Assembly (NCBI GenBank): GCA_020137815.1
Contig: CM035351.1
Coordinates: forward strand, 9,858,001-9,922,000
DNA from: Hormiphora californensis
Taxonomy: Eukaryota; Animalia; Ctenophora
Direction: 5' to 3'
DNA length: 64,000 bases
The notes under the pieces are model-generated. The model ran no database searches and was not told the DNA's origin. It saw only the letters and a list, made by a program, of their open reading frames with translations. Every line of letters begins with the position of its first letter. Position 1 is the first letter of the stretch. Positions 14,940 through 50,139 of this stretch are shown in pieces. A program made the position numbers and the translations under genes.

Positions 14940-16450
14940 CATGAGAATAAATTGCTGTTGGAGGAGAGGATGATTTGGTGCGACTGTGCAACGTTTACAG
15001 GCCACCTTACAACGGTAAAGCAAGGTTTACTGAGGCTAACTTTCTTGATGAGTTCAATGATTACCTCTCTAACCTTTTGATGAAAAATGGAAGTCCATCG
15101 ATTATGGGTGATTTCAACTTTCAAGTACAAGACTTCAGGAACTTCTCCACAAAGAAACTCCTTAACCTTCTGGACTCGTTTGATTTTGTCCAGAATGTGC
15201 CGCTGTTGCCTACTCATCTTCAAGGAGGAACTCTGGATTTAGTTTTCTGTCAGCGTGTTATGGCCAGTAAGTTGGGGAACCTGAGGATATTTCCAGATGG
15301 TACGATGTCGGATCACTATCTGGTAATGGTGGATGTTAAGTTGGCTTCTGAAGGAAGATATGTTTCCCGAGAGAGGATGAGTGTCTACCATGATTTTAAG
15401 GCTGTAGATGTAGAGGTCTTCCGGAGTGGGCTGAGGGATATGTGTTTGGAAATTCCAGATGACGTAACACTGTTAAGGTGGTCTTGTATGATAATGTGTG
15501 GGTGAGTAGGTTTACTGTTTTGTATAACACTTGAGAACTACAGTATATATTGCAAGGCAATGTTAACTTGCAATCAGTGATCTGATGGGTATCTTCCGAT
15601 TCAAGGGGTGATGGGTCAGATATCAATGGGATCGTTCTCGGGTCCTTCCGTACTATGGTGTGAGTCGGGTGAAGAGTCTGGTGGTAAGTGAGTCCAAGTG
15701 AGTCTCAGTGCGTGTCAGTGAGTGTCCTCTCCGCTTCGTATCCTCCTTTAAGTATTGCACCGATTCTCCTCGGTAGACATAACAATTGGTTGTTATCTGA
15801 CGCATGTGTAATAGGAATTTTGCTTTACGTCAGGTGTCCTCACGTCTCTCGGTATCCATCCAGCGTAGGTAAACAATCTAGAATCCCCGGAAAGCTTGAC
15901 GTCAGGTGTCCTCACGTCTCTCGGTATCTATCCAGCGAAGGTAAACAATCTAGAATCCCCGGAAAGCTATCCAAGATGAAGTAATGAAATATGTGGATAT
16001 AACAACACCAGAACAGGCTTTGTATCTGTATGATAGAGCTTTGAAGGAGGCTGTAGATAGATTTGTCCCGACCAGACGGAGGAAATCGGTGAAGAACTTC
16101 AGGCCTTGGAGAGAGAGACAGGATGTTCGGGACACCCTGCGGGAGAGAAGAAAAGCGGAGAGGGCTTGGGAGAAGAATAAAACAGGACTAACGAAAGCAC
16201 GGTACATGGAACTCCAACGACAGTTTGAGAGGATTGACAAGGAGGCAAGAATGGAGTATGTAAAGAAGAAGCTTGAAGATGTGAAGGATGACCCTGCTGG
16301 ACTTCAGAAAATGTTGGCTCGACTACTGGGGAAGAAAGAGACTCTTCTACCGGGTGGACTGTCTGTCAAGAAACTAGCTGATAACTTTGCACAGTTTTTC
16401 TCTGGAAAGATTGATAAAATACGGTCTACTGTTAGTGACATTGACACCTA
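14940..16450 (+). mobile_element. L2-like LINE ORF2 fragment (APE and linker), split by a solo LTR
   Basis: VYRPP, MGDFNF, PTHLQGGTLDLV, SDHYLV, RPW, FAQFFSGKIDKIR. Frame DDVT|PEQ rejoins across the LTR. Confidence 0.9.
15471..16004 (-). mobile_element. Solo LTR with 4-bp TSD (ACAC), related to the LTR at 62181
   Basis: Termini TGTTAAGGTGG...GATATAACA; ACAC on both sides; shares GTGTGGGTGAGTA..GTTTACTG with 62738-62760; internal duplication of about 66 bp. Confidence 0.85.
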
Positions 16451-23115: not shown

Positions 23116-24056
23116 CAGCCCTTCATATTAGGTTGTCCAGTAAAGATTTTCGTTTGGCTTTTATAGGAAAATGGTTTGAGATAAAGCAAAATGGACTTCA
23201 CCACCGATTTTCTCACGCGATTTTGGATCGGAATAGCATGCCTGATATCGGTATATTGGCTGTTCTCGGTTCCCACCAGGCTATTTTCTCTACCCCACTC
23301 TTGTTACTGCTGTTTGGGGTTACCAAAGTTTTTTAAACGCTGCCCTAAGAAAACTGGTACAGTCTTTTTAGCTCCTATGGTGCTTAATCGATAGCAAATC
23401 GTCTGAGGATAAAATATATATGCGATTTGGGTCTCTACGCGTTCGCTAGTAACCACTAGAACAGTGAATGTAACATAAAAAGCGAAAAATATACATAAAA
23501 ACTGGCCCGTTTTGGGGTACATGTTCGAAAACGCCAATTATTCACTTTAAAAGTCAACCAATCAAATAATTGGCTTTACTATGCCTTAGAACTTACTTAG
23601 AACTATCTTTTACTGTAAAGTTTTTGATTATAAGCCAATCCTGGTGAGACCCGGAAGTGAAAGTTTCTCATTTTTATCAAACTTTTTTGGATGCCCATTG
23701 CTTAGTGTCAAATTAAAGATAAGATGATTTATTACATCTTGAACGGTAGGCAATTGTCCAATAAACAAGTTTGATGCAACAAGACATCACTCCGGTACCA
23801 TTTTCAAGAAGTACAGCAGCTTTAGTACTAAAACTCGAAAATCGCGAAGTAACCCCGTACAGCAGCAACAAGAGTGGGGTAGAGAAAATAGCCTGGTGGG
23901 AACCGAGAACAGCCAAATACCGATATCAGGCATGATATTCCGATCCAAAATCGCTTGAGAAAAAGCGTGGTGAAATCCATTTTGCTCTATCTCAAGACAG
24001 TTTCCTGATAAAAGCGAAACGAAAATCTTTACTGGACAACCTAATATAAGGGCTGT
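23116..24056. mobile_element. Mariner-like TIR element with arms of about 195 bp and a probable nested insert
   Basis: ATATTAGGTTGTCCAGTAAAG and its reverse complement at 24027-24047. Confidence 0.7.
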
Positions 24057-24207: not shown

Positions 24208-24251
24208 GACTTTCAGGCTTTTCAGCACTGCTTGAAATAAATTAATTTGAG
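24208..24251 (+). other. Diverged spliced-leader-like sequence at the LINE 5' end
   Basis: GACTTTCAGGCTTTTCAGCACTGCTTGAAATAAATTAATTTGAG aligns without gaps to 47399-47442. It has 7/44 mismatches to the ctenophore SL as I recall it and is followed by GT. Confidence 0.7.
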
Positions 24252-24347
24252 GTCTATGACCTCGAATTAAAAGACTTCCCTAGCTATGGCTTTTTAGCAA
24301 GGGTTCCTGCATGACATCTATATATCCCTGCAACTCCAACCACCAAC

Positions 24348-26155
24348 ATGGATCGACACTTCCTTGAATCTTTATCCAACCTATCTGCAGCTCGATTGGA
24401 GTGTTTCTGAACATATAAAAAAGGAGCTCTGCAAGAGGAAGAAGGACACCACTAACACTGACCCTACGCAATTCATCACCTATGAGCCATTGGATCCATC
24501 GCATCCTATTCTCGCTCAGCGAATAATAGGATGCCGGCCCGTTGAGAGCAAGAACTCACGTGCGCGCGATATAAAGCACGTTTTCAGCAGATCGCGCGTG
24601 ATAGACCGTTTTTGGAGACCTTTTTAGCTGACCTAGCACTACTCAAAGGTCAATTATGGCCTCATTTCGCATCGTGATGAATCGGCGGGTATTTACCCAT
24701 ACTCACAAGGCCATGACGATTCCCCCAGTACCCGCAGATTGTCCCAGGACCGAGTAGGAGCTTGCAGCCAGGTCTTTAAAGAATTGCTCATGTTTAGCGT
24801 CAATTTTGACCCACTATTCCTCAAATGCTGATACTCGCGGGTATTTTCCGTGAAACTAGAGACAATTGTCTGCCAGGAGCAACAAACGAGATGCAAATCG
24901 GTTGAGTAGTTCCTTGCAGCCAGGTCTTTGAAAAAGTTTGCTCTAAAATCAATAACGCGCCGGAGGCCTAGATGTGAGATCGATCTCGGTGCTGTGAGCC
25001 ACACTTTCTAGACGAGACACAGAGGGAGTTACTGAGGGGGGAAGTCAGTCAGTTCAGCGCTGGGGGTCGCATCACTAACACCTGGATCACCCTTAGTGAT
25101 CGGAGCTACGGCTGGGGAAACGCCAACTTGAGTCCTTTGGATATGACTCTGTTTCCCTGTATCAAGAGAGCACTGGAGCAGTTCAGCAGGTAGTGACCAA
25201 CGCCCTGGCCTGGAATCTTGCCTGGTTACATACTATCCAAGCGGTCAGGGTGTTGGGTACCACAACGATTTTGAAAAAGCCCTGGATGCGAACTTGAGGG
25301 GTCACATCACATACATAAAAGGGAGAGAAAGAGGGAAAGAAAAAGAGAGGGATCACATCACAAGGTAGCTCGCTTAGCTACCTGGTCTATCACTAGGACT
25401 TTGTGGGGGAGAGAGAGAGAGAGACAGAAAGATAGAGATAGCAGATAGAGAGATACATAGCGACAGACAGACAGAGTGAGGCAGAGAGGAAAAGATAGAA
25501 ACAGGTCCCTCGATTTGCGATCGGTACGATCGCCCCAGTTTTGCTAGTACTGACTAAACAGGAGTTCTCCCAACATAACAAAAATATCTCAGTGATGGGT
25601 GGGTCGATTTTGAGAGGCAAAAACGCAAAATACTCAGAAAGCTAATCTCTACTACCTACAACAAACTTGTCCAATTCTGATTCGGTCCAGTCTCACTTTA
25701 AGGGATACAGCGCCGACCTACGGGAAGCTGCAGATTATTCTTTGTTACCAGTGGATGGCTCCATGTATACCATGAAAGCTGGGTGCCAGGAAGCCTTTAA
25801 GCACAGAGTACTAAAGTGTAATAAGATCAGGGGATCTCTTGGAAAATTTGCTCTGTCCTTCAGGAGGGTAGACTCTGCAACAACTACTGATCTGGTACCA
25901 CCATCCCAACATCCTACTCAACCTGAGACAGAACATAGGTTAACCCCTCTCCCTCCCCAGGAAAGGGAGGTCACTGTCCTGATAGGGACAAGTATGTCAA
26001 AGTGGATTCCATCCGGTCCTGGGTTTATAAACATGTCAACCTCGGGTGCTAGACTCATCTCCCCGCACCCAGACTGGAAAGGAGCTACTGCACTGGATCT
26101 GCTCCGTGACCTTAAGAACCGTGAGCCAGAATTGTCTATCGGCTACCTGATAGTA
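24348..26155 (+). pseudogene. LINE ORF1 remnant: AlkB-family 2OG-Fe(II) dioxygenase domain followed by SGNH/GDSL esterase
   Basis: AlkB motifs: YEPHFLDETQRELL, SCLVTYYPSGQGVGYHNDFE (HxD at 25261-25269), LATWSITRTLW, DGSMYTMKAGCQEAFKHRV, KFALSFRR. SGNH motifs: VLIGTSM and STSGAR. Contains stops, frameshifts and insertions. Confidence 0.8.
25288..25547 (+). mobile_element. 3' half of the same Helitron family inside the AlkB ORF
   Basis: Matches 29165-29548, including the hairpin and CTAG. Confidence 0.75.
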
Positions 26156-27629
26156 CTGCCCCTTTTTTTTAGAATGAAGTATTTGCATTTTTTAAGTTTC
26201 GAGAAAATCGACTTTAAAGTTTTTTAGAGGGTTTTTCGGAACTAAAATTGTCATAGAAGCCCAAATAGTACGTCAAACGATTTATGACTTATACCACAAG
26301 AATCCTGAAGGAATTCTGCAGGACTTCCAATTATCAGCTATCATCAAATTTGTCTCAAATTGATGTCAGGCATCAAAATTGATGCCTTACTCTGTTGGTT
26401 ACTTCACTTATATTACAGTTTTGAAAATACTTCCGTTGCTAGACTGATATCGACTGAAGCATAATTTTTCGTGGTAGATACTTCAGTAATTACTTCACTC
26501 AAAAAAATACTTCATCATAATAGCAACAAAAGCACCTAAAAAGTACTTCACTTGCATATACTTCAGTAATTACTTCATTCCTAAAAATACTTCTTCAGAA
26601 CTGTATTCAAAATGCCTAAAAGTAACTTAATCGAACAAAAGTGTACATGTGCTTCAAAATCGCAATCTTACTTCAATATTTTGGATAAAATCACAAACGA
26701 AGTTAATTTTCATTTAACACGCAGTGAAGTATAAAATGTGTTAGAATTCTTGCTAGTCTTGAAAGTAACTCCAGAGCAGCAGCTGCAGACAAACAGACGC
26801 ACAGACAAACAGACGCACAAATTACAACTGCAGCAGCCTGCAGCAGCCTGCAGCAGCATAAAGAGATGGGCCGCCCGCCCTTCGGGCGGAATGTTAAAAT
26901 CATGGTGCTGATAAATTGAGCGAAAACAGAAAAACGCTATGGCAACCCTCAAACTAAGACGAACCTGCAGATAAAATCTGGAAGATTAATCTGTTCCGGT
27001 ACGAGTCATACTTTGAAATTGGTTGAGTTCGGCTTGTAATATCAGAGTGAAACATGGAGATTGGAGATTCAAGAATTTTCTTCCGACCTCTACACAGGTC
27101 CGTGTTCATAAAATATGACAGACATACAAACAGATCACAGACATACAAACAGATCACAGACAGACACACAGACAGACACACAGGCCAGTTCATTACATGT
27201 TTTAACAATCGATTGGCTGATAACCAGTCACGTGACCTGAATAATGAGCTCGGATTGGTTGTTTATTTGGTCCGGTCGGTTGCTGAGAGATAGAGAAAGG
27301 GTCTGACAGAGAGATAATATCGATGAGAGGGAACGGGAGTGAGATTGTCTCCATTCGGGTTATTCACGAAGAGGAGTATTTGTCTAGGAGTGTGGGAATG
27401 TAAGGACAGAACAGTTAGATGACAATATATTTTGTTAATATTTGGATGATTTGTATCCGTATTCTTTAATTTTTTACAAACATTTCAAATTCCCGTGAGT
27501 GTGATAGTTCAGTGACATGGGAGACAGTGGGAGGCAAAGTGACAGGGGTTACAATGGGAGGCAAAGTGACAGGGGTTACAATTGGAGATAAGGTGACAGG
27601 GGTGACAAAGGGATATAAGGTGACAGGCC

Positions 27630-28942
27630 CTCACTCACCCCCCTTCCCCAGGTCATCCTGCCTCCTAACTCACCCCCTTCCCCAGGTCATCCTGCCTCCT
27701 AACTCACCCCCCTTCCCCAGGTCATCCTGCCTCCTAACTCACCCCCCTTCCCTAGGTCATCCTGACCCCTAACTCACCCCCCTTCCCTAGGTCATCCTGC
27801 CTCCTAACTCACCCCCTTCCCCAGGTCATCCTGCCTCCTAACTCACCCCCTTCCCCAGGTTATCCTGACCCCTAACTCACCCCCCTTCCCCAGGTCATCC
27901 TGCCTCCTAACTCACCCCCTTCCCCAGGTCATCCTGCCTCCTAACTCACCCCCTTCCCCAGGTCATCCTGCCTCGTAACTCACCCCCCTTCCCCAGGTTA
28001 TCCTGACCCCTAACTCACCCCCCTTCCCCAGGTCATCCTGCCTCCTAACTCACCCCACTTCCTTAGGTTATCCTGACCCCTAACTCACCCCCTTCCCCAG
28101 GTCATCCTGCCTCCTAACTCACCCCCTTCCCTAGGTTATCCTGACCCCTAACTCACCCCCTTCCCTAGGTCATCCTGCCTCCTAACTCACCTCCCTTCCC
28201 TAGGTTATCCTGCCTCCTAACTCACCCCCCTTCCCCAGGTCATCCTGCCTCCTAACTCACCCCCTTCCCTAGGTTATCCTGCCTCCTAACTCACCCCCTT
28301 CCCTAGGTTATCCTGACCCCTAACTCACCCCCTTCCCCAGGTCATCCTGCCTCCTAACTCACCCCCCTTCCCTAGGTTATCCTGACCCCTAACTCACCCC
28401 CTTCCCTAGGTTATCCTGCCTCCTAACTCACCCCCTTCCCCAGGTCATCCTGCCTCCTAACTCACCCCCTTCCCCAGGTCATCCTGCCTCCTAACTCACC
28501 CCCCTTCCCCAGGTCATCCTGCCTCCTAACTCACCCCCCTTCCCTAGGTCATCCTGACCCCTAACTCACCCCCCTTCCCTAGGTCATCCTGCCTCCTAAC
28601 TCACCCCCTTCCCCAGGTCATCCTGCCTCCTAACTCACCCCCTTCCCCAGGTTATCCTGACCCCTAACTCACCCCCCTTCCCCAGGTCATCCTGCCTCCT
28701 AACTCACCCCCTTCCCCAGGTCATCCTGCCTCCTAACTCACCCCCTTCCCCAGGTCATCCTGCCTCGTAACTCACCCCCCTTCCCCAGGTTATCCTGACC
28801 CCTAACTCACCCCCCTTCCCCAGGTCATCCTGCCTCCTAACTCACCCCACTTCCTTAGGTTATCCTGACCCCTAACTCACCCCCTTCCCCAGGTCATCCT
28901 GCCTCCTAACTCACCCCCTTCCCTAGGTTATCCTGACCCCTA
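27630..28942. repeat. 32-33-bp C-rich minisatellite, about 40 copies
   Basis: Variants of CCTAACTCACCCCCTTCCCCAGGTCATCCTGCCT. Confidence 0.95.
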
Positions 28943-28953
28943 GCCTTTCGGAA

Positions 28954-29402
28954 TCTAACTATATCTAATGCAAATTTGGGTGGAAATGTGACACCTTATC
29001 GTCAGTGTGACGACGTGATCCGTCACTGTGACGACGTGATCCGTCACTGTGACGACGTGATCCGTCACTGTGACGACGTGATCCGTCACTGTGACGACGT
29101 GATACGTCACTGTGACGACGTGATTCGTAGGTATCACGTATCACAAGTGCTAGAGAACTGCTTGCGAACTAAAGGGGTCACTTCACATACATAAAAGGGA
29201 GAGAAAGAGAGAGAGGAAAAAGAGAGGGATCACATCACATAGCATATATCATAAGCGAGAGAGAGAGTGAAGGAGAGACAGTGAGACAGAGAGGCCGCAG
29301 ACTGCAGAACGAGACAGAGAGAGACGGAGAGACAATCAGTGAGATAGACAGAGAGATAGAGAGTAAGACAGCGAGAAAAAAGATAGAAACAGAGAGAGAG
29401 AG

Positions 29403-29494
<92 letters not shown>

Positions 29495-29548
29495 TATGGA
29501 AACAGATTCCTCGATTAGCGATCGGTACGATCGCCCCAGTTTTGCTAG
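28954..29548 (+). mobile_element. Non-autonomous Helitron
   Basis: A|TC start, hairpin GCGATCGgtaCGATCGC near the 3' end, CTAG|T end; internal 21-bp tandem repeat and (GA)n. Confidence 0.85.
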
Positions 29549-30019
29549 TGATGTAAATTTGAAACCAAACGCTAGGGCAATAACTTATAAAACCTTATGA
29601 GGTCAGTGTTTGACAACACTGTTTGTGGTGTCTCTCTCTCTTTGTCTCAGAGTGACACTCTTACATAGAGATAATCCCAGAATCATGATCACCCCGGCCC
29701 CCAGACATCTCTTCTCCACTTGTTGAGTTACCTAACAACTGGTTGTGTTGTGTCGTTACGACAGTACGGTACTGGAACATAATGCTACCTTTGAATGTGG
29801 GGTTCTAAGTTCGAAGAATGAGATTGGAGTGACGTAGTTGTGACGGTGAGGATGAGTAATTCGAGATGTGAACGATAATTATAATTACTCAGAATAGAAT
29901 AATTATTATAGGGATCGCCTCCGTTCGACCTTCATCATGATGATGCTGCAGCAAAGAACAAATCTTGGAAATTACTTCATTTGGCCGGACTTGTGTTATA
30001 AATGGCACATATTATAATA

Positions 30020-30443
30020 AACAAGAATTATTGCATTATGTATTCATAATGCGGTATTTCCCTGCCCTCCGTCGACAGGATCAGTATCACACTATCAGTA
30101 TCACAATATCAAGGCTTGGTCACAATGTGAGATGCATGCGTCCTGTATGTATGCAGTTACACAGCTGTTTTACTCTACCCTCACCCCTTCAGCAACAGTG
30201 TTGTGAGCGCCGCGCACAGCTTTGAAAAATAAGCGTCCTGACATCATATTTCATCAAAACAGTTATTTGATTTTATGAAGGAGCAGTTACTATGCTGCTA
30301 CCGTGACACACGCGATTTTGACCACGCTCGAGTTACTATTTCAAATCCGAGATTTCTAAACCCTTTATGATCTTTTTAGCACACGTGCTAAAACGATCAT
30401 CCGGGTGGATGCCCTTCGGGCATCCACCCGGGCAGGGAAAAAA
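30020..30443 (+). mobile_element. Helentron/HINE-like element
   Basis: 5' ACAAGAATTATT, palindrome GCATTATG/CATAATGC, sub-TIR TTCCCTGCCC; 3' GC hairpin plus GGGCAGGGAAAAAA. Confidence 0.75.
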
Positions 30444-31269
30444 TGAAGTATTCTTAAGTTATGAAGTATTTTTTCTGGATGCGACAAGAAGCATTTGAAT
30501 TCCACAGATTTATGAAGCATTTTCAAATTGAAGTAAATGAAGTGAAGTATCTTCTGATTTGAAAATACTTCAAACAAAATCTGCAACTGATTTATGAAGC
30601 ATTTTCAAATTGAAGTAAATGAAGTGAAGTATCTTCTGAGTGGACAATACTTCAAACAAAATCTGCAGCTGATTGAAGTATTTCAATAGAATTTTTTAAA
30701 TGAAGCAAACAACTGAAGCAAATTTTTCTGCGGTTATTACTTCTATGGTAGAAAAGTTTAACGAAGCAGTATTTATTTCCGAATTATATTAGCGAAGCAA
30801 TTGCCATTTGCTTCACTTTTCTGCAGTTTTTCAAAAATAAAAGTACTTCACAAAAAACACTTCACTCTATTTTTTGAAGATTGAGACACGAGACTTAGCC
30901 CATCTTGTAGATCTTTTTCTCCTGATCAAGATGGTATAAATAACTCAAAATCGCCAAAATTGCAAATACTTCATTCTAAAAAAAAGGGGCAGAGTAGCGT
31001 TTGGAAGGTAAATAACACCCAGCCAACCGACGTGGGCAGGCCGAGAACCATGTCATCCTATGCTACAATAACTACGGATAGTAGCACCAATATAGCACGG
31101 TCCCAGCAGCCGAGCTCCAATGCAGCACGTGAGCCAGCCCCATTTGATGAGCAGGCTTTTTTCGAAAGACTCTTGGGCGATGGACGCGAGAATGGACGCG
31201 AAAATGAGAGAAATGCTAGACGTGAGACTAGAGCCGAGACGAACGTGGAGGGAACGTTAGGGCCTGTTT

Positions 31270-34085
31270 CGCCTACGAGCAAGCTGTTACTGCTTAATGC
31301 AAGGAGTCCAGCAGGTGATACAGGTTGGAAACTCGGAGACTGTGTTACGCAAGAGAAAACTCCCAAAGTAGCCATTGCAGTAACTGAGACTTGGTTTGAG
31401 GGTTATCATTCTGATGCTCAGGTTCAGATACCAGGGTATGACGTATATAATAGAAGTGATAGAGAGAACCGAGTCGGCGGAGGCTGTGCCTTATATGTTC
31501 AATGTTCGCTGGCTGTTTCTGACAGTATATATTTTGCGAGTGGGAATAACAATATGTGTGTATGTTGATCAAATAAACACTATTTATGCTGCTGTGTATC
31601 GCTCCGAGTCAAGTGTGTTAGACTTTCAAAAGCTGATGGACAATTTGCAGACTTTTATAGATAAACACAGTGATGGATGATTATCAGAGGTCGTAATTTC
31701 TGGGGATTTTAATCTTCCTCTTTTTCAGTGGTCCGATGGTTCGTCTGTCCCGGTTGATCAGCCTAACTACAATGTTGTTGATTTCATAGACACAAACTTT
31801 CTATCCCAAGTTGTTGAGGGCCCTACAAGAGGCAACAACACGCTAGACCTTGTGTTTACCAACCGTCCAGAATATTTCAGCGATATTTCTATTACGGATG
31901 GGGGTATCTCGGACCATTTCTGGGTATCATGTGAACTATCTTTCAACCCTCTCGGTCCTAAAAGTTTATTTCTTCCCAGTACACTTGAGGGTTATCGTCA
32001 ATTGGATCTTCAGTCGGCTGACTTCACTAGTATTGATGCGGAACTAGCGGCTACTGATTGGGATCGAATGTTGACGGAATGTGAAGAACTGGGAGACGAG
32101 GATGGTTCCCTTTTTGTGGAGGCCATGCGTGACAAAGTGTTCAAAGTTGTAAAGTCACACTGTCGTCTGTCGGTTGAAGAAAATCAGAAAAGAGTTTGTG
32201 GACAAAGAACTGAAACACTTAACTAGCAGGAGACGTAAATTGGTTAAACGAGAGGACGATTCAAACAAATCGAAATCACAGATGGACTGTATTATTGGAA
32301 GGATAAAGGACCATCTGATATCAAGGGACAAGAAGTCAGAGAGGAAGGCTGTGAGCTGTCGGCGTAATTAAAGAAAACCCGAAGTTCTTTTATTCACACG
32401 TCAAGAGGAAATCAAAGGTTAAATCTTCAGTTGCACCCCTTGAGCGTGAAGATGGTTCACTAACTGTGGATCCTCAAGATAATGCTGGACTACTCCAACA
32501 CCAGTTTTCCAGTGTTTTTAGTGATCCTTCCGCTATCGACCCCGCAGAGGCGGCTGGTAACGTGGAGGACCTTGGTGAGATCCTGACAAGTTTGGAGTTT
32601 TCACAGGAATGTATCCAGACTGGCTTGAAGGAACTTAAACCATTCTCAGCATCCCCTCCTGACTGCATTCCTTCTTTTGTTCTGAAACAGTGCAGCAGTA
32701 GCCTGGCATACCCGATTTGTTGTGGAACAGGTCATTTGAAGACGGATCTGTCCCTATAGTTGCTTAAAGCAACAGTTCATAACACCGTTATTCAAGAAGG
32801 GGGCTAAATCGAAACCTGTGAATTATCGCCCAGTGTCTATAACAAGTCACCTGTCTAAAGTGTTTGAGCGGCTGGTGAGGAAACGGATCAGTGACTACTT
32901 GGACGAGATGGAGTTGCAGAGTGACACACAGCATGGTTTTAGGAAGGGGCGCAGTACCATGACACAAACCCATGTTGACATCATCCTATCTGAACTATGC
33001 GGTGATCAGGAAGTCGATGCTATCTACTTAGATTTTAGTAAAGCATTTGATTCCGTGGATATCAATGTTCTGCTAGCTAAATTGAGGTGATATGGTATTG
33101 GAGGTCAACTCCTTCAGTGGATCAGTGCGTGGATCCTGGGCAGGAATCAGTGTGTAATGGTGGATGGAGTGAGGTCGCCCTGGGTTGAGGTACTTAGTGG
33201 GGTTGCCCAGGGTAGTGTGCTCGGACCACTTCTTTTCCTCATATATATTCTTGACCTGGAGACAGTACTAGACGGTAGCATGTGTCTAACTTTTGCTGAC
33301 GATACTAAGTTTGTAAAAGCTATTTCGGATATGAATAGCCAGGCGTGCCTACAGAACGATCTTTTAAGAGTGGCAGAATGGGCAAAGAAGAACAATATGA
33401 AGTTACATGAGGACAAATTTCAGCTCTTGAGCTATAGTCTGAATAAGTCTGCTATCCTCAGACAGTTTCCTTTCGCAGCTGAAGTGTTTTCATACACTAC
33501 AAGCTCAGGTGTGCAGTTGACCCCCGAACCTGATGTTCGTGATCTGGGTGTCCAGATGTCTTCAGATGGGTCATGGACGAGGCACATTTCTATCATAGTG
33601 CGGAAGGCTTCCCTCTTGAGTGACTGGATATTCAGCGTTTTTCGGAACCGTTCTCCGGAGGTTATGGTACAGCTTTTCAAGTCCTTGGTCAGGCCTATTC
33701 TTGAGTACTGTTGCCTAGTCTGGAACCCTTCCAAGGCTGGTGATATCAAGGCTATTGAGAATGTCCAACGTTGTTTCACCAGACGTCTTGATGGTATGCA
33801 GGGTCATGACTATTGGGATAGACTGAAATTGCTCAATCTTATGTCCCTTCAGCGTCGGAGACAGCGCTACATTCTGATTCATGTGTGGAAGACGATTCAT
33901 GGTTTTGTACCTAACTCTGCCAACCTAGTATTTCAACAGCACGCTAGACTGGGTATGCGGATAGTCCCACCACCTTACCCCTATAGAGCAGAAACGAAAC
34001 GAGCTAATCAATTTCACTGCTCATTTGGTCCAAGAGCAGCTCATTTATGGAACACTCTACCAGCTAAGGCCAAATTTTCGACGTC
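31270..34085 (+). pseudogene. LINE ORF2 remnant (AP endonuclease + reverse transcriptase), CR1-like
   Basis: APE motifs: VTETWF, DRENRVGGG, GDFNLP, PTRGNNTLDL, SDH. RT motifs: NYRPVSITS, QHGFRKGRS, YLDFSKAFDSV, GVAQGSVLGPLLF, FADDTK, VRPILEY...WNP. Frameshifts and stops present. Confidence 0.95.
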
Positions 34086-35174
34086 AAGGCATCGCAATCA
34101 ATAAAGCCGCCACCGGACAGCTCCTATACCTTCTCTCCCACGAAACGACAAAACCACGAACACTCCTTGATCGGGGACAACATCGAGGAGGAGCCTCGAC
34201 ATTTGCTCCCTCTGTATGGAGGGAAGACACCAGCTTCAGGCCTGCCCTCTGAACAGGCCCACATCTCCGCTCCGGATCCTGCGGCGTTTCAACCTGTGTG
34301 CCTGCCGGGAGTTATCGAGGACCGTAAACCTGGATCCGAATACGCACATCGAGAGGACCATAGTGGACCAGTTCCTATGCGACCACCATCTTCCTCGCCA
34401 ACACGTCCAGCAGCAGCGCCCGACTGAGGACAACACCATACTCGATCTGCAACTAATTTGGCAGGTCTCGTATCCCATACCCAATTAGTTGCAGATACCG
34501 AATAATTTCACCGATTCGTCTCCCGTATCCCATACACAATTAGTTGCAGATACCGAATTACTTCACCGATTCGTCTCTCGTATCCCATACAGAGATAGAG
34601 AGATCACGTGAGAGAAACCCTATTTCTGGCTGCTAAAATCTATTTCTGGCTGCTAAATCTATTTCTGGCTGCTTGCAGCCAGAAATAGGTCTAGCAGCCA
34701 GAAATAGCAGCCAGAAATAGACTGTCGAGCAACTGTGCACCTGCCGTGAATTTTTCAAAACGTGAACCCCGGTCGGATTTCTTGAACACGTATTTTTGAC
34801 TTTAGGACGATATATCTGACGATTGGTAAGACTTGGAACGTCAATCTTGCAACCAAAATGTTCGCCAGACAATTCTCTAGAACACTGGTTTTTGTTAGAA
34901 CCATGTTGACCAATTTTTCGATGAGTTTTGATTAATTTGACGGAACCCGGTCATGACCAGTAATCGCAAGTCACGCAAAGACAGTGGGACACTACTACCA
35001 TCTTTCGATTCCAATGAATGTTCATAAATTTTCAGTGGTGATTAGGCTTGCTTTTGCGTGGGACGTGGGTGCGGTACCTTTTTTAAATGTGCATATTTCT
35101 AGCTTAGAAGATATCTCAAAATAATCTTATGAAACGAGTAGAGAAGACACCGAAGGCATTACAGTGAGAGAGAA

Positions 35175-39067: not shown

Positions 39068-40328
39068 GTTTATGGACAACTGAGACAATGATTTTATTGC
39101 AGGAAATAAATCACACGACGGTTTCGTCGAACATCGACATCATCAGGCTGCTAAAATAAGGTCACATTAATTAAAATTTAAATTTGACTTGCCAAAATAT
39201 TTTCCCGCCAAAACCGAAAAAGCCTAATAACCCTAGAACGGGGTGGGGCCAAGGTCTGGCCCCACTAGGTTTTGATCACCTCATCTAGCCCGATCGAACG
39301 CGACCAATGACGACCTCCTACGACGACCTAAACCCGTAATCCCACGTGGTGCCAGCCAACCGCCAGCCAAACGGTATCTATCACCTGGTATCAAAATCTA
39401 AGCTCTAAGTGACCAGGAACTGGTATTATTAGTGCTAATTGGTTATAACGTCATAAATCACATAATTACGAATAATTAGTGAACCGGGGGTGGTAGAGAC
39501 CTGCGGGATGGTGCTTTGGACTTTTCATAGAGTCCTTAATCATATCAGCAAGTCAAATTTAAAATTCCAGACCCAACTTCCCACAACTGACCCTACTACT
39601 CCACGATACTTAAACTTCCCTATATTAGTGAATCATTTTCTGAGTTTGTAATTTCATTCATACGGTCACACACTCTTCCCATCCGAGTTGTGTTTACACC
39701 AGGTACCAAGTTGAGAAACCTGTTTTGCAAATCGAGACCGTACGACAGAACACACTGTCACATTACTAACTGTCTTGTATGCCCCCTCATGACCCATCCT
39801 ACTTTGGATTGTACTGTCAAGGGAGTGGTATACAAGATAGTGTGTAAATTATGTAATGAAATATATGTGGGTGAGACGGCTAGACCGTGCCGTGAGCGTT
39901 TCAAGGAGTACAGATTGGCAGCGAAATCGCCCAATATCTACCCTAACGAAGCACTTGCAGCATACTACCAATCACAACACAATGGAGAACCCCCTGATTT
40001 AGAGTTTGACATATTGGCAACTGGCTTGGACCAGCCAGTCAGACGAAAAGTCACGGAGGCGATCCTAATCAAATCTCTTAAACCTAGCATTAACAAACGA
40101 GAAGAGGGAGAAAAGATCGAACAATATATTATCTGATACAGTATCTGATTTCTGATTCCTAGTTTGCGTGTGATGTATATATTGTATAGTTCCTATTTCG
40201 TGTATTTTAGATATTAGACATTAATTAATGTGACCTTATTTTTAGCAGCCTGATGATGTCGATGTTCGACGAAACCGTCGTGTGATTTATTTCCTGCAAT
40301 AAAATCATTGTCTCAGTTGTCCATAAAC
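39068..40328 (+). mobile_element. 5'-truncated Penelope-like element (Neptune-like) with inverted partial pLTR
   Basis: GIY-YIG ORF to 40136 (CHITNCLVC linker, GVVYKIVCKLCNEIYVGETAR, RKVTEAILIKSLKPSIN). 39068-39174 is the reverse complement of about 40220-40328. A MITE-like piece lies at about 39175-39600. Confidence 0.9.
40244..40286 (+). ncRNA. Minimal hammerhead ribozyme motif in Penelope pLTR (inverted copy at about 39110-39152)
   Basis: CTGATGA, then stem II GTCGA/TCGAC, then GAAAC; stems I and III are weak. Confidence 0.65.
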
Positions 40329-40875
40329 CTCTGTACAGTGTTTAGTTTATTATTAAAGTGCTGATTTATAATTTTATGTTGATTGACGTGTGTGATTTAC
40401 TATCTAACTATATCTAATGCAAATTTGACCGGAAATGTGACACCCTATCGTCAGTATGACAACGTGATTCGTCAGTGTAACGACGTGATCCGTCAGTGTG
40501 ACGACGTGATCCGTCAATGTGAAGATGTGATTCGTAGGTATGACGTATCACAAGTGCTTGAGAACTTGAGGGGTCAAATCACATACACAGAAGGGAGAGA
40601 AAGAGAGAGAGAGAAAAGGCGAGGGATCATATTTCAGTGTTCCCTATTCCAGCTACCATTTCACCGAAATTCGCCCGTAGGGCGAACGGGTTTGCTAGTA
40701 TATTTATAATTAACACTATGTTTTTGTAGCCCGATGAAGAGGTAGATCCTCGAAACTTGTTGCGACATTAGGTATAATACCCGTCTAGTTCATTTGTTCA
40801 GCCCAGAGAGAATAATAAAAACTCTGACTATCAAACATGAGGCTAATAAACAGTTATCCGATCACCCAACTGTCT
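40329..40875 (+). mobile_element. pLTR fragment of the second Penelope family, carrying a Helitron
   Basis: Matches 44868-45052 plus the tail seen at 43967-44037. Confidence 0.8.
40403..40698 (+). mobile_element. Non-autonomous Helitron with the same 5' end as 28954
   Basis: TCTAACTATATCTAATGC start, hairpin TTCGCCC/GGGCGAA, CTAG end. The empty site TACTA|TATATTT is visible at about 44948 with no TSD. Confidence 0.9.
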
Positions 40876-47442: not shown

Positions 47443-50139
47443 GTGTACGTATGTAAAGAGCGCCGTACACCACCCACAGTAAGCTCTCTCAAGAAGAAGA
47501 TCATCAACTACATCAGTTAGTCACTCTGAAGTTCGGACCACGCCACCCTCAGCCACATCATCATCCTGGGTCCTAACCCCGTCAGTCCGGCATGACGTGT
47601 TTTAGGTGGATTGTTGGCCCTGGCAGAGAAGCTGAAAGACAAGCAAGCTGATGCAGTGAAGTCAGTGATAACGCTTTTTCAACCAGGGAAGACTGCTACA
47701 GCGAATTCGAACAAAGTGACAACGGTAGGGAGACCAAACCTGAACGAATGCAGTACATTCTTGGGAATAGATGCTCTGTACTCAAAGGGCAACAAAGCGT
47801 TCTCAAATAAGGATCAACTAACGAAGATGATAGTCTAGTAAGGTCCAACTTAACATATTAATAGGTGCATCTGAATGCCTGGAATGTGGAGAAAACTTCA
47901 CCTTCCAGCGAGGGAGGAGAGAGATACTGAGGTCCTATGCAGTCAGCCCTCTCATGACTGTGAGAAAGTTGTGGGAGTGTGCGAGTCTAGGGATGAGGAT
48001 GGTATGCTGTCCCTGACCTCGGACGTCTGGCTATGTAGTGCATGTTTCAAACCAAAAGTAACGGAGACAGTGAGCAGCCGAGCTTCACTTCGACACCAAT
48101 GGCCAGTCAGACGGAAAAGAAGGATACCAGTGACCATCCCATGCAATTTCCGTCGCCACGTGACACAGCAACTCCAGGAGGCGGCTGAGGAGAGGGAAAC
48201 CGACGTTGAAGACGAAGAAAAGGGAAAAGCAACAGAAAAAGAGGAAGACGAGAAGGGCGAACTGGAAGAAGGAGAGATAGAGCAAGAAGATACGAGTAAT
48301 ATGGACGTGAAGGCACAGGAATTAGCCACAGCATTGAAGGAAGTTGAACGCAAGCAGAAAGATGAGGAGAAGTTTCCAAACACTGCTTCAACAACATGTT
48401 ACCGGTTAAAAACTGGGGCCTGCCCGCACGGCTTGCGGGGAAATAATGCAGCAGAGGGGAAACCAAACTGCACAAACTTTCACCCGAAGATATGTAAGAA
48501 GTTTTCTAGGAGTGGAACTGGAAAAGACGGGTGACCAGGGTGATAAGTGCAAGAGACTACACAAGACGAGATGCCCCGCTGCAAAGGAATCATGATGCGT
48601 AGACCAAACATGTAAGCTTTTACACCATCGTGGCACAGTCAGAGCCTGGAACGAGAAAGAGAAAAAGCAGAAAGGGTGAAGTTAAGATAGCAGTAGGGGC
48701 GAAAGGAGAAGAGTCTTATAGAAAAATTACAGCGAAGAACGATGCCGGTGATCGGAGCCAGCGATGGAGACCCCAGAGCGAGCAAGCAAAACAAAAGGCA
48801 GAGAACCTATCTGGAAGGAAACAAGCTCCCGAACTGCGAGGTAATCGTGAGAACTCAGCTCGGGGACAGCTAAACCAAAGAGGCAGACAGCAAACCCGGC
48901 ATACTACCTGACAGACACACGGTAGAACGGGAGACTGGGACAGAGGGAGACCGAAAGAGAGATGGGGCATGGGAAGAGGCTGTACTAATGACATTATGAC
49001 AAGTTCAGGCCCTTCGTCATTATCGTAATTGATCATATCTCCGGTTCCTGATAAGCTACAGAAATCTATTGCATACCGTTGGAAAGGAAATTTTAAGGCC
49101 CATTGAATGGCGTTGGTTTGAAGTCTTATCAGGAACAGGAGTTATGAGCCAAAACGTGAAAAGTTGATGTTAAAAAACTTTTTTACGTGTTTGAAAAAAC
49201 CCAAATTGGTGTGGCGCGCAACTTTTGCGTGTGCTGTTCTAAGCGCTCCTACTATTAGATAGAAATGAAAGCAGCAGATGGACTACACTATGGAGTGGAA
49301 AAAATGATGAGCAAGGGGAGTCTTTTTTAGACCAGCGCTCCATTCTGAAGCGACTAATGTAAACGGAACAGATGATTAGGAGGAGCCTCAGGTTAGGAGA
49401 CCAGAAAATGGAGGACAGGCAATTGGAAAGGGGAGGATGGAGGAGAGGAAACCATTTGGCGGGATCATATTAAACATGCAGTCAGCAAACCCAGGAGCCA
49501 GGAGCAGCTGCTCTTGGAAAATTGGAGCCTTAAAGGGGATAGTGGAAACTAGTCCGTTCAAGGTTCCTTTTATTGCTCTAACAGAAACCTGCTTGCGGGA
49601 CGGGATCGAAGATAAGCAGATCTCTCTAGGAGAAGAGTATGCTATTAACCGCAGGGATAGGGATGGCAGGACGGGAGGAAATGCAGAGAGAGAGATAACA
49701 GTTAATTGTGGGCCAAGAGGAACAGTTGCCAACAGACATGTCATTTTATCGTGTTTCCAGTGATTCTTTGTGATCTTTACACAAATCTGTCATAAGAGGG
49801 CGTCCGTCTATCGAGACACAAACTCACGGCAGTGCACGGCGCAATAGACCGGTGCAAATTGTTCGTGCGGGGCGGGCGTCTATTTGAGCGAGCGGGGTCT
49901 ATACACCCCCCAAAACTTACCAGTAGAGAACGTGGTATCGTTAGATTACGATCACTGCCAACTACTGATATATACATATATATGCACGGCACCAACACCC
50001 AAATGGATCATAGGGGTAGTTTACAGGGCCCCTTCGGTAACGGTGGGAAACTTCAAGGCAGTCTTAAATCGGATCAAAAAGTACATCCAGGGGATGTATG
50101 ACCATGTGGTCTGCATTACGGGAGACTTCAACACCCCTT

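Follow-up and report, generated by a model that had tools for sequence, protein, structure and literature searches.

A decayed LINE of the ctenophore Hormiphora californensis that probably carried an AlkB dioxygenase-SGNH esterase gene

Can a long interspersed nuclear element (LINE) carry its own nucleic-acid demethylase? This question is raised by a decayed locus in the ctenophore Hormiphora californensis, which lies in a 64,000-nucleotide stretch of eukaryote-type, repeat-rich DNA (contig CM035351.1 of assembly GCA_020137815.1, positions 9,858,001 to 9,922,000 of the forward strand; hereafter the window, whose own numbering is used throughout). An initial annotation, made from the letters of the window, had proposed that a fusion of an AlkB dioxygenase and an SGNH esterase forms open reading frame 1 (ORF1) of a LINE at this locus. 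The analysis described here confirms the AlkB-SGNH fusion, shows that it is widespread and that its two active sites are conserved, and indicates that the gene encoding it very probably belongs to a LINE. The best explanation as a whole, to which we assign a probability of about 0.6, is that the window copy derives from a LINE, likely one of the CR1 group, and is now dead and internally deleted; that this LINE has an AlkB-esterase gene at its front and probably had three genes when live; and that it used the AlkB domain to demethylate its own nucleic acids.

The pieces of the front gene are spread over 24348-31005 and are interrupted by three inserts, as follows.

24348-24489, + strand: front gene piece 1, with the start codon and N-terminal helices; matches residues 1-47 of the intact relative P0001 at 89-93% identity (tblastn)
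24490-24994, no strand assigned: insert 1, unclassified, with a 7-bp target-site duplication at 24483-24489 and 24995-25001
25002-25296, + strand: front gene piece 2, with the AlkB lid region SYGWG and HxDxE at 25261-25275; matches P0001 residues 47-146 (tblastn)
25297-25663, no strand assigned: insert 2, with a 6-bp target-site duplication
25670-26155, + strand: front gene piece 3, with the distal His (25802), a Lys (25844), the last Arg (25862) and a Pro-rich linker
26156-30992, no strand assigned: insert 3, DNA-transposon-like, with 37-bp terminal inverted repeats and a 4-bp target-site duplication, AGTA
30997-31005, + strand: last surviving front-gene codons, AFG, just before esterase block III and directly after insert 3 and its AGTA

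The three inserts proposed initially are thus borne out by a target-site duplication at each (7, 6 and 4 bp). Compared by tblastn with P0001, an intact natural database protein of 449 amino acids, the pieces between the inserts tile its residues 1-319 colinearly, with 87% identity over 290 aligned residues. Pieces 1 and 2 each contain a single frameshift (near 24402 and near 25187, respectively), and a query made from piece 3 (25670-26149) matched two database proteins, P0001 at 85% identity over 94% of the query and P0002 at 51%. Two of the motifs listed in the initial annotation fared differently: TRTLW sits at 25392, inside insert 2, and is therefore not part of the AlkB gene, so that we reject it as an AlkB strand, and the pattern W..SY.WG is absent as written, SYGWG being present instead. 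Insert 2 is a repeat, with relatives at 29163-29549 (within insert 3) and 40559-40632, and insert 3 looks non-coding, containing a nested minisatellite (34 bp x 38, 27629-28942) together with 21-bp and 82-bp tandem repeats.

We compared the active sites of the window copy with those of its intact relatives. The iron triad HxD...H, as had been claimed, is intact in the window (codons 25261, 25267 and 25802). The 2-oxoglutarate (2OG)-binding RxxxxxR motif indeed has Lys in place of its first Arg (25844), leaving that motif incomplete in this pseudogene copy; in addition, damage is seen in the strand that follows HxD, where 12 unmatched codons stand against 17 in P0001. The esterase blocks read initially stand in part: piece 3 encodes the block I Ser (25991) and the block II Gly (26045) and AFG follows, but the esterase ends there and the second half of the domain, with the Asn and His blocks, is lost. 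A lax profile search found neither blocks III (Asn) and V (His), ∼127 residues, nor a second AlkB-esterase copy anywhere in the window. The largest window fragment alone (25646-26224, a 193-residue frame) had no Pfam match and a 160-residue fragment alone had no useful PDB match; the domain calls rest on the intact relatives and on profiles built from those relatives. P0001 matches PF13532 (E 1.3e-11) and PF13472 (E 3.3e-12), with Lipase_GDSL_2 above the cut-off in P0001 and just below it in P0002, in which PF13532 (2OG-FeII_Oxy_2) is above the cut-off. Hence, the 2OG-FeII_Oxy_2 and SGNH profile matches anticipated for this locus were obtained on intact relatives and not on the window fragment, and the proposed fusion holds because intact relatives carry both Pfam domains.

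To define the family, a profile of 16 members was used, which yielded 408 representatives at E values up to 1e-30; the best 150 of the 408 were examined. Both the AlkB and the SGNH domain profile are matched by 148 of 181 gathered proteins, and 120 of the 181, of which 99 are separate representatives of 50%-identity clusters, have AlkB from HxD onward and a near-whole SGNH domain. Some of the 120 have two AlkB domains, giving 127 in all, with a median pairwise identity of 32%. The H, D and H are invariant (127/127), all five H-D-H-R-R residues are present in 125/127, and the Glu of HxDxE is retained in 121/127. The first Arg is Arg in 126/127 domains and the Lys is private to the window copy; Lys as a family trait is rejected accordingly. 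The catalytic S-G-N-H is complete in 117 of the 120 family esterases. Because both active sites are conserved at such divergence, we infer that both enzymes have been under selection. Such relatives as carry a species name, few in number, come from ctenophores: the cluster of P0004 (38% identity to the window gene) includes a protein of Pleurobrachia bachei, and matches to the reverse transcriptase (RT) of the window copy come from Bolinopsis microptera (48%) and Mnemiopsis leidyi (46%).

A tandem pair of AlkB domains precedes the esterase in eight proteins of 560-770 residues (P0094, P0096, P0097, P0101-P0104 and P0163); P0096 lies on a 9.2-kb contig.

Which type of AlkB does the family carry? 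Judged by similarity of sequence and of predicted structure, it is ALKBH2/3-like. The AlphaFold2 model of P0001 (mean pLDDT 82.3, pTM 0.49) has two domains joined by a disordered linker, and the double-stranded beta-helix fold with its lid is present according to the predicted model and the profile match. With this model, Foldseek placed ALKBH2 at the top (E 1.8e-12), followed by ALKBH3 and, near 1e-8, by FTO and ALKBH5; VIA alignments gave Z 22.1 for ALKBH2 (rmsd 2.7, 175 aligned), Z 20.9 for ALKBH3 (rmsd 2.9, 175 aligned) and Z 18.7 for FTO (rmsd 2.7, 182 aligned). Similarly, the family profile matched ALKBH2/3 in PDB at 1e-13 to 2e-15 and Escherichia coli AlkB at 2e-3, and neither ALKBH5 nor FTO was among its 36 matches at E values up to 0.01. 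Identity to ALKBH2/3 in the structural alignments is only ∼20%, and virus proteins, including RNA-virus polyproteins, match the P0001 fold about equally well. A rough pattern for a Y-x-W lid motif, which may correspond to the lid aromatics of ALKBH2, occurs in 67/120 family proteins. Since the closest relatives are ALKBH2/3, the substrates indicated are 1-methyladenine (m1A) and 3-methylcytosine (m3C) rather than N6-methyladenine (m6A). Of the three substrates suggested initially (m1A, m3C and m6A), the first two fit these relatives and, as far as sequence comparison goes, m6A is unsupported by them.

Could the AlkB domain of the same element instead erase a regulatory mark, m6A in RNA or 6mA (N6-methyladenine in DNA), to escape silencing, rather than repair m1A and m3C? 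An AlkB of an orchid Gypsy element demethylates m6A (PMC9289625), FTO is also a structural match to the model, as given above, and members of the AlkBH3 clade have been suggested to act on m6A in DNA (PMC4738411). However, the family profile matches ALKBH2/3 and neither ALKBH5 nor FTO, and HxDxE is as in ALKBH2/3 in 121 of the 127 domains; we regard mark erasure as improbable.

Turning to the second domain, block I of the esterase is mostly GTS (75) or GDS (28) among the 120 proteins, and a 22-residue N-terminal helix (residues 14-35) is predicted in the P0001 model. When the family profile was run against PDB, bacterial esterases (1e-12) outscored 4c1b, the esterase of the LINE ZfL2-1 (E 8.9e-8), and not one of the 120 proteins has, at the position four residues ahead of the block III Asn, the His described as transposon-specific (H191 in ZfL2-1), assuming no gap. 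The family esterase would seem to work as a LINE esterase gene does, but it departs from the ZfL2-1 type in two features and may be a separate capture.

The evidence that the front gene belongs to a LINE comes both from the window and from relatives. The following feature lies downstream of the front gene.

31242-34065, + strand: ORF2, encoding an apurinic-like endonuclease (APE) and RT; Pfam Exo_endo_phos_2 and RVT_1

As read initially and confirmed by Pfam, APE and then RT lie on the same strand as the front gene. ORF2 matches residues 14-959 of the 1005 residues of an intact protein, P0303, at 69-83% identity; the best PDB match of P0303 is L1 ORF2p. The last ∼45 codons are missing, and the LINE 3' end is cut at 34065, its tail not being found in the window by the lax profile search. 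ORF2 also has five changes of frame and two or more in-frame stops; together with the cut 3' end, these bear out the claim that the copy is dead. The label CR1 is our assumption from C-terminal motifs, the tree having contained database relatives only.

Two other proteins join the AlkB-esterase gene to a LINE ORF2. P0112 runs in frame from AlkB and half of SGNH into the start of APE (Pfam E 3.9e-4, below the curated cut-off), and in P0135 a single frame passes through AlkB and a cut esterase to reach the APE-RT linker (E 2e-12 with an ORF2 profile built from 90 ORF2 proteins). The LINE link is therefore not unique to the window copy. Among the 184 proteins checked, these are the two chimeras, and either deletion or a faulty assembly join could have produced them. 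Further, the front gene and the RT have nearest relatives at much the same distance (87% and 83% identity), and FastTree trees of the two (25 front-gene rows; ∼43 RT rows of 121) are alike: in each, the window copy groups first with a single sister and next with a pair, all within a well-supported clade of long branches; the comparison of trees proposed at the outset thus gave similar shapes around the window copy. Overall, these results make it very probable that the AlkB-esterase gene belongs to a LINE, and somewhat less so that it belongs with the RT found in the window.

A host gene, or a processed ALKBH pseudogene that adjoins a LINE by chance, would agree with the single copy seen in the window. 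A single host ALKBH-like gene, however, would not account for a fused esterase in ∼100 clusters defined at 50% identity; identity to ALKBH2/3 is only ∼20%, and P0112 and P0135 join LINE ORF2. On these three grounds we reject the processed pseudogene and consider a host origin of either kind very improbable.

Was the fusion then the ORF1 that directly precedes ORF2? The initial annotation had placed APE-RT immediately after the SGNH blocks; in the window, ∼250 bases (31006-∼31240) intervene. The link to a LINE is supported and the position directly ahead of APE-RT is not, an apparent remnant of a middle gene lying between. The features concerned are these.

31006-31260, + strand: translated stretch, probable 3' remnant of a middle gene
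47600-49830, + strand: another decayed LINE, which belongs to the same broad clade

The first of these translates into a linker of low complexity, followed by 'FFERLL' and a tail of helical character, and its stop (31258-31260) overlaps the start of ORF2. Compared with the missing half of the esterase, 31006-∼31240 gave no match, the score being reached by 66, 82 and 471 of 500 shuffles in the three frames, and it gave none with the nearest full ORF2, P0303, whose alignment begins at 31242 and which itself begins only ∼27 residues before the APE core. Relatives in the clade of the window RT have a Cys/His finger gene before APE (P0289; window 47600-49460). In the neighbouring LINE, this gene has a cluster of Cys residues resembling a PHD finger as well as CCCH-like fingers (∼48395-48630), and its tail, again helical, runs up to where APE begins, near 49460; one frame of it found nothing meaningful in Pfam, and no AlkB or esterase match was seen upstream. 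The middle remnant has a weak likeness to the tail of this neighbouring gene (16 of 1000 shuffles reach the score). Because there is no esterase match, the ORF2 of P0303 starts late and the neighbour's finger gene ends in a similar tail, we place a probable deletion junction at ∼31006, at which the end of the esterase and most of the middle gene would have been removed. Among 32 full-length family members with a listed contig, 17 are on contigs of <4 kb, and 12 of the other 15 are on contigs of 5.0-6.0 kb, a size that fits a LINE of three genes.

A LINE of two genes, with no ORF1 other than the AlkB-esterase and with the 250 bases ahead of APE serving as a spacer or a leader of ORF2, has several points in its favour: coiled-coil esterase ORF1s directly precede ORF2 in CR1, L2 and RTEX (PMC3905857), the APE of P0112 begins a few residues past the cut esterase, and a single frame is open from 30885 into APE. 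Against this stand the late start of P0303 ORF2 and the helical reading of the remnant, with its stop at the ORF2 start, like that of the neighbour's finger gene; moreover, two genes need ∼4.5 kb, whereas the long contigs cluster at 5.0-6.0 kb. We therefore consider two genes unlikely and retain three as the probable number in the live element.

Several results weigh against our best explanation. The AlkB and SGNH domains were selected with profiles made from the family, which favours conserved ones, and the middle remnant matches no Pfam family, its likeness being weak and to one neighbour. The sole tested retrotransposon AlkB, that of the orchid, demethylates m6A (PMC9289625). The ORF2 part of P0135 has 24-30% identity and P0112 is unmatched by the ORF2 profile, both being of more distant lineages; the gene is therefore either old or portable. 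Locus scans of metagenome, viral and genome contigs with front-gene and ORF2 queries returned no intact element DNA, and the three-gene layout and the pairing with this RT are thus inferred ones. Similarly, the front-gene clusters nearest to the window gene include five long contigs (5802, 5626, 7677, 5816 and 5893 bp), and none of these lengths recurs in the eight nearest RT clusters, so that the evidence for pairing with the window RT comes only from the window. Finally, the join between front gene and LINE in the window is a break point.

This break point and the missing contig-size pairing are what would be seen if a deletion, an insertion or a template switch had brought an AlkB-esterase gene of another element or LINE lineage next to a LINE truncated at its 5' end, and SGNH genes are common to LINEs, Penelope-like and long terminal repeat (LTR) elements (PMC5408684). 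Yet the front gene and ORF2 are colinear on one strand, their relatives are equally close (87% and 83%) with similar trees, the rest of the esterase was not found behind the LINE within the window, and P0112 and P0135 are also joined to LINE ORF2. Such a chimera is, in our view, quite unlikely.

On the explanation that we prefer, a dead CR1-like LINE, the front protein would have a helix at its N terminus, followed by an AlkB dioxygenase of the ALKBH2/3-like type and then by an SGNH esterase, and the live element would have had the order AlkB-esterase gene, zinc-finger RNA-packaging gene (only the tail of which would be left in the window) and APE-RT. The AlkB-esterase protein may join the RNA-protein particle of the element, where AlkB, using Fe(II), 2OG and O2, would strip methyl groups of the m1A/m3C type from the RNA template or from new single-stranded cDNA. 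Lesions of this type prevent base pairing and stall polymerases; left in place, m1A and m3C would stall reverse transcription. The methyl groups could be either chance damage or host defence. Through the esterase, the protein may bind membranes or lipids, a role that has been proposed for its counterpart in ZfL2-1 (PMC3905857).

The closest published precedent, and the sole AlkB retrotransposon found in print, appears to be that of Phalaenopsis, whose Ty3/Gypsy elements carry an AlkB ORF, an m6A eraser described as a recent gain (PMC9289625). As in our family, a retrotransposon has a dioxygenase of the AlkB family, for which the element's own RNA is the proposed substrate; there, however, the element is an LTR one of one orchid lineage with AlkB as a separate ORF, whereas here an animal LINE has a deep, diverse family in which an ALKBH2/3-like AlkB is fused to an esterase. 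The type IV esterase ORF1 of CR1, L2 and RTEX, including ZfL2-1, likewise has an intact SGNH domain behind an N-terminal helix and upstream of APE-RT (PMC3905857, PMC4120745). According to PMC3905857, none of the esterase ORF1s in Repbase has a structural RNA-binding domain; in contrast, the family described here fuses a nucleic-acid enzyme to the esterase, lacks the ZfL2-1-type His in 120/120 and has a front gene that is probably not adjacent to ORF2. Plant-virus AlkBs resemble ABH2/ABH3, repair m1A and m3C and prefer RNA, and are thus also ABH2/ABH3-like AlkBs in an RNA-based mobile genome, but they lie within the replicase, have no esterase and do not belong to a retroelement (PMC2553587). 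Human ALKBH2 and ALKBH3 are the best sequence and fold matches and share HxDxE..H..RxxxxxR, differing in being stand-alone repair enzymes with ∼20% identity to the family. Among the papers listed in our literature searches we found no description of an AlkB in a LINE, Repbase and most subscription journals having been outside the scope of the search, where an annotation is possible, and no published work combining AlkB and SGNH with retrotransposition; PMC13343379 mentions neither AlkB nor 2OG.

Other features of the window lie around the LINE. Just upstream is a pair of 209-bp inverted repeats (23116-23323 and 23849-24055, 92% identity) resembling a miniature inverted-repeat transposable element, and just beyond the cut 3' end, at 34204-34420 (+ strand), is a C-x2-C-x4-H-x4-C zinc knuckle with further Cys/His residues, which resembles the gag fragment of another element. 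An APE endonuclease fragment of a more distant LINE lies at 14951-15502 (+ strand; Pfam E 1.6e-9), and a weak GIY-YIG match at 39591-40133 (+ strand; E 0.004, below cut-off) is possibly a Penelope-like remnant.

Retrotransposons with nucleic-acid-modifying enzymes are rare, and the retention of both active sites at ∼32% identity points to strong and long-lasting selection on the enzyme. The AlkB fusion is an exception to the published lack of structural nucleic-acid-binding domains in LINE esterase proteins (PMC3905857). A question that can now be tested is whether retrotransposition is limited by methyl lesions or marks on the RNA or cDNA of LINEs, and whether elements carry their own eraser; the intact natural proteins P0001 and P0002 are available for assay. 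More tentatively, and we consider this doubtful, several ctenophore LINE lineages might share the AlkB-esterase as a portable counter-defence that erases host methyl marks on element RNA or cDNA. If true, this would be the first family of LINE-encoded nucleic-acid demethylases, one that has stayed active in about a hundred lineages that have diverged widely and that is doubled in some cases, and it would imply a methylation-based restriction of retrotransposons, so far unknown, in an early-branching animal lineage.

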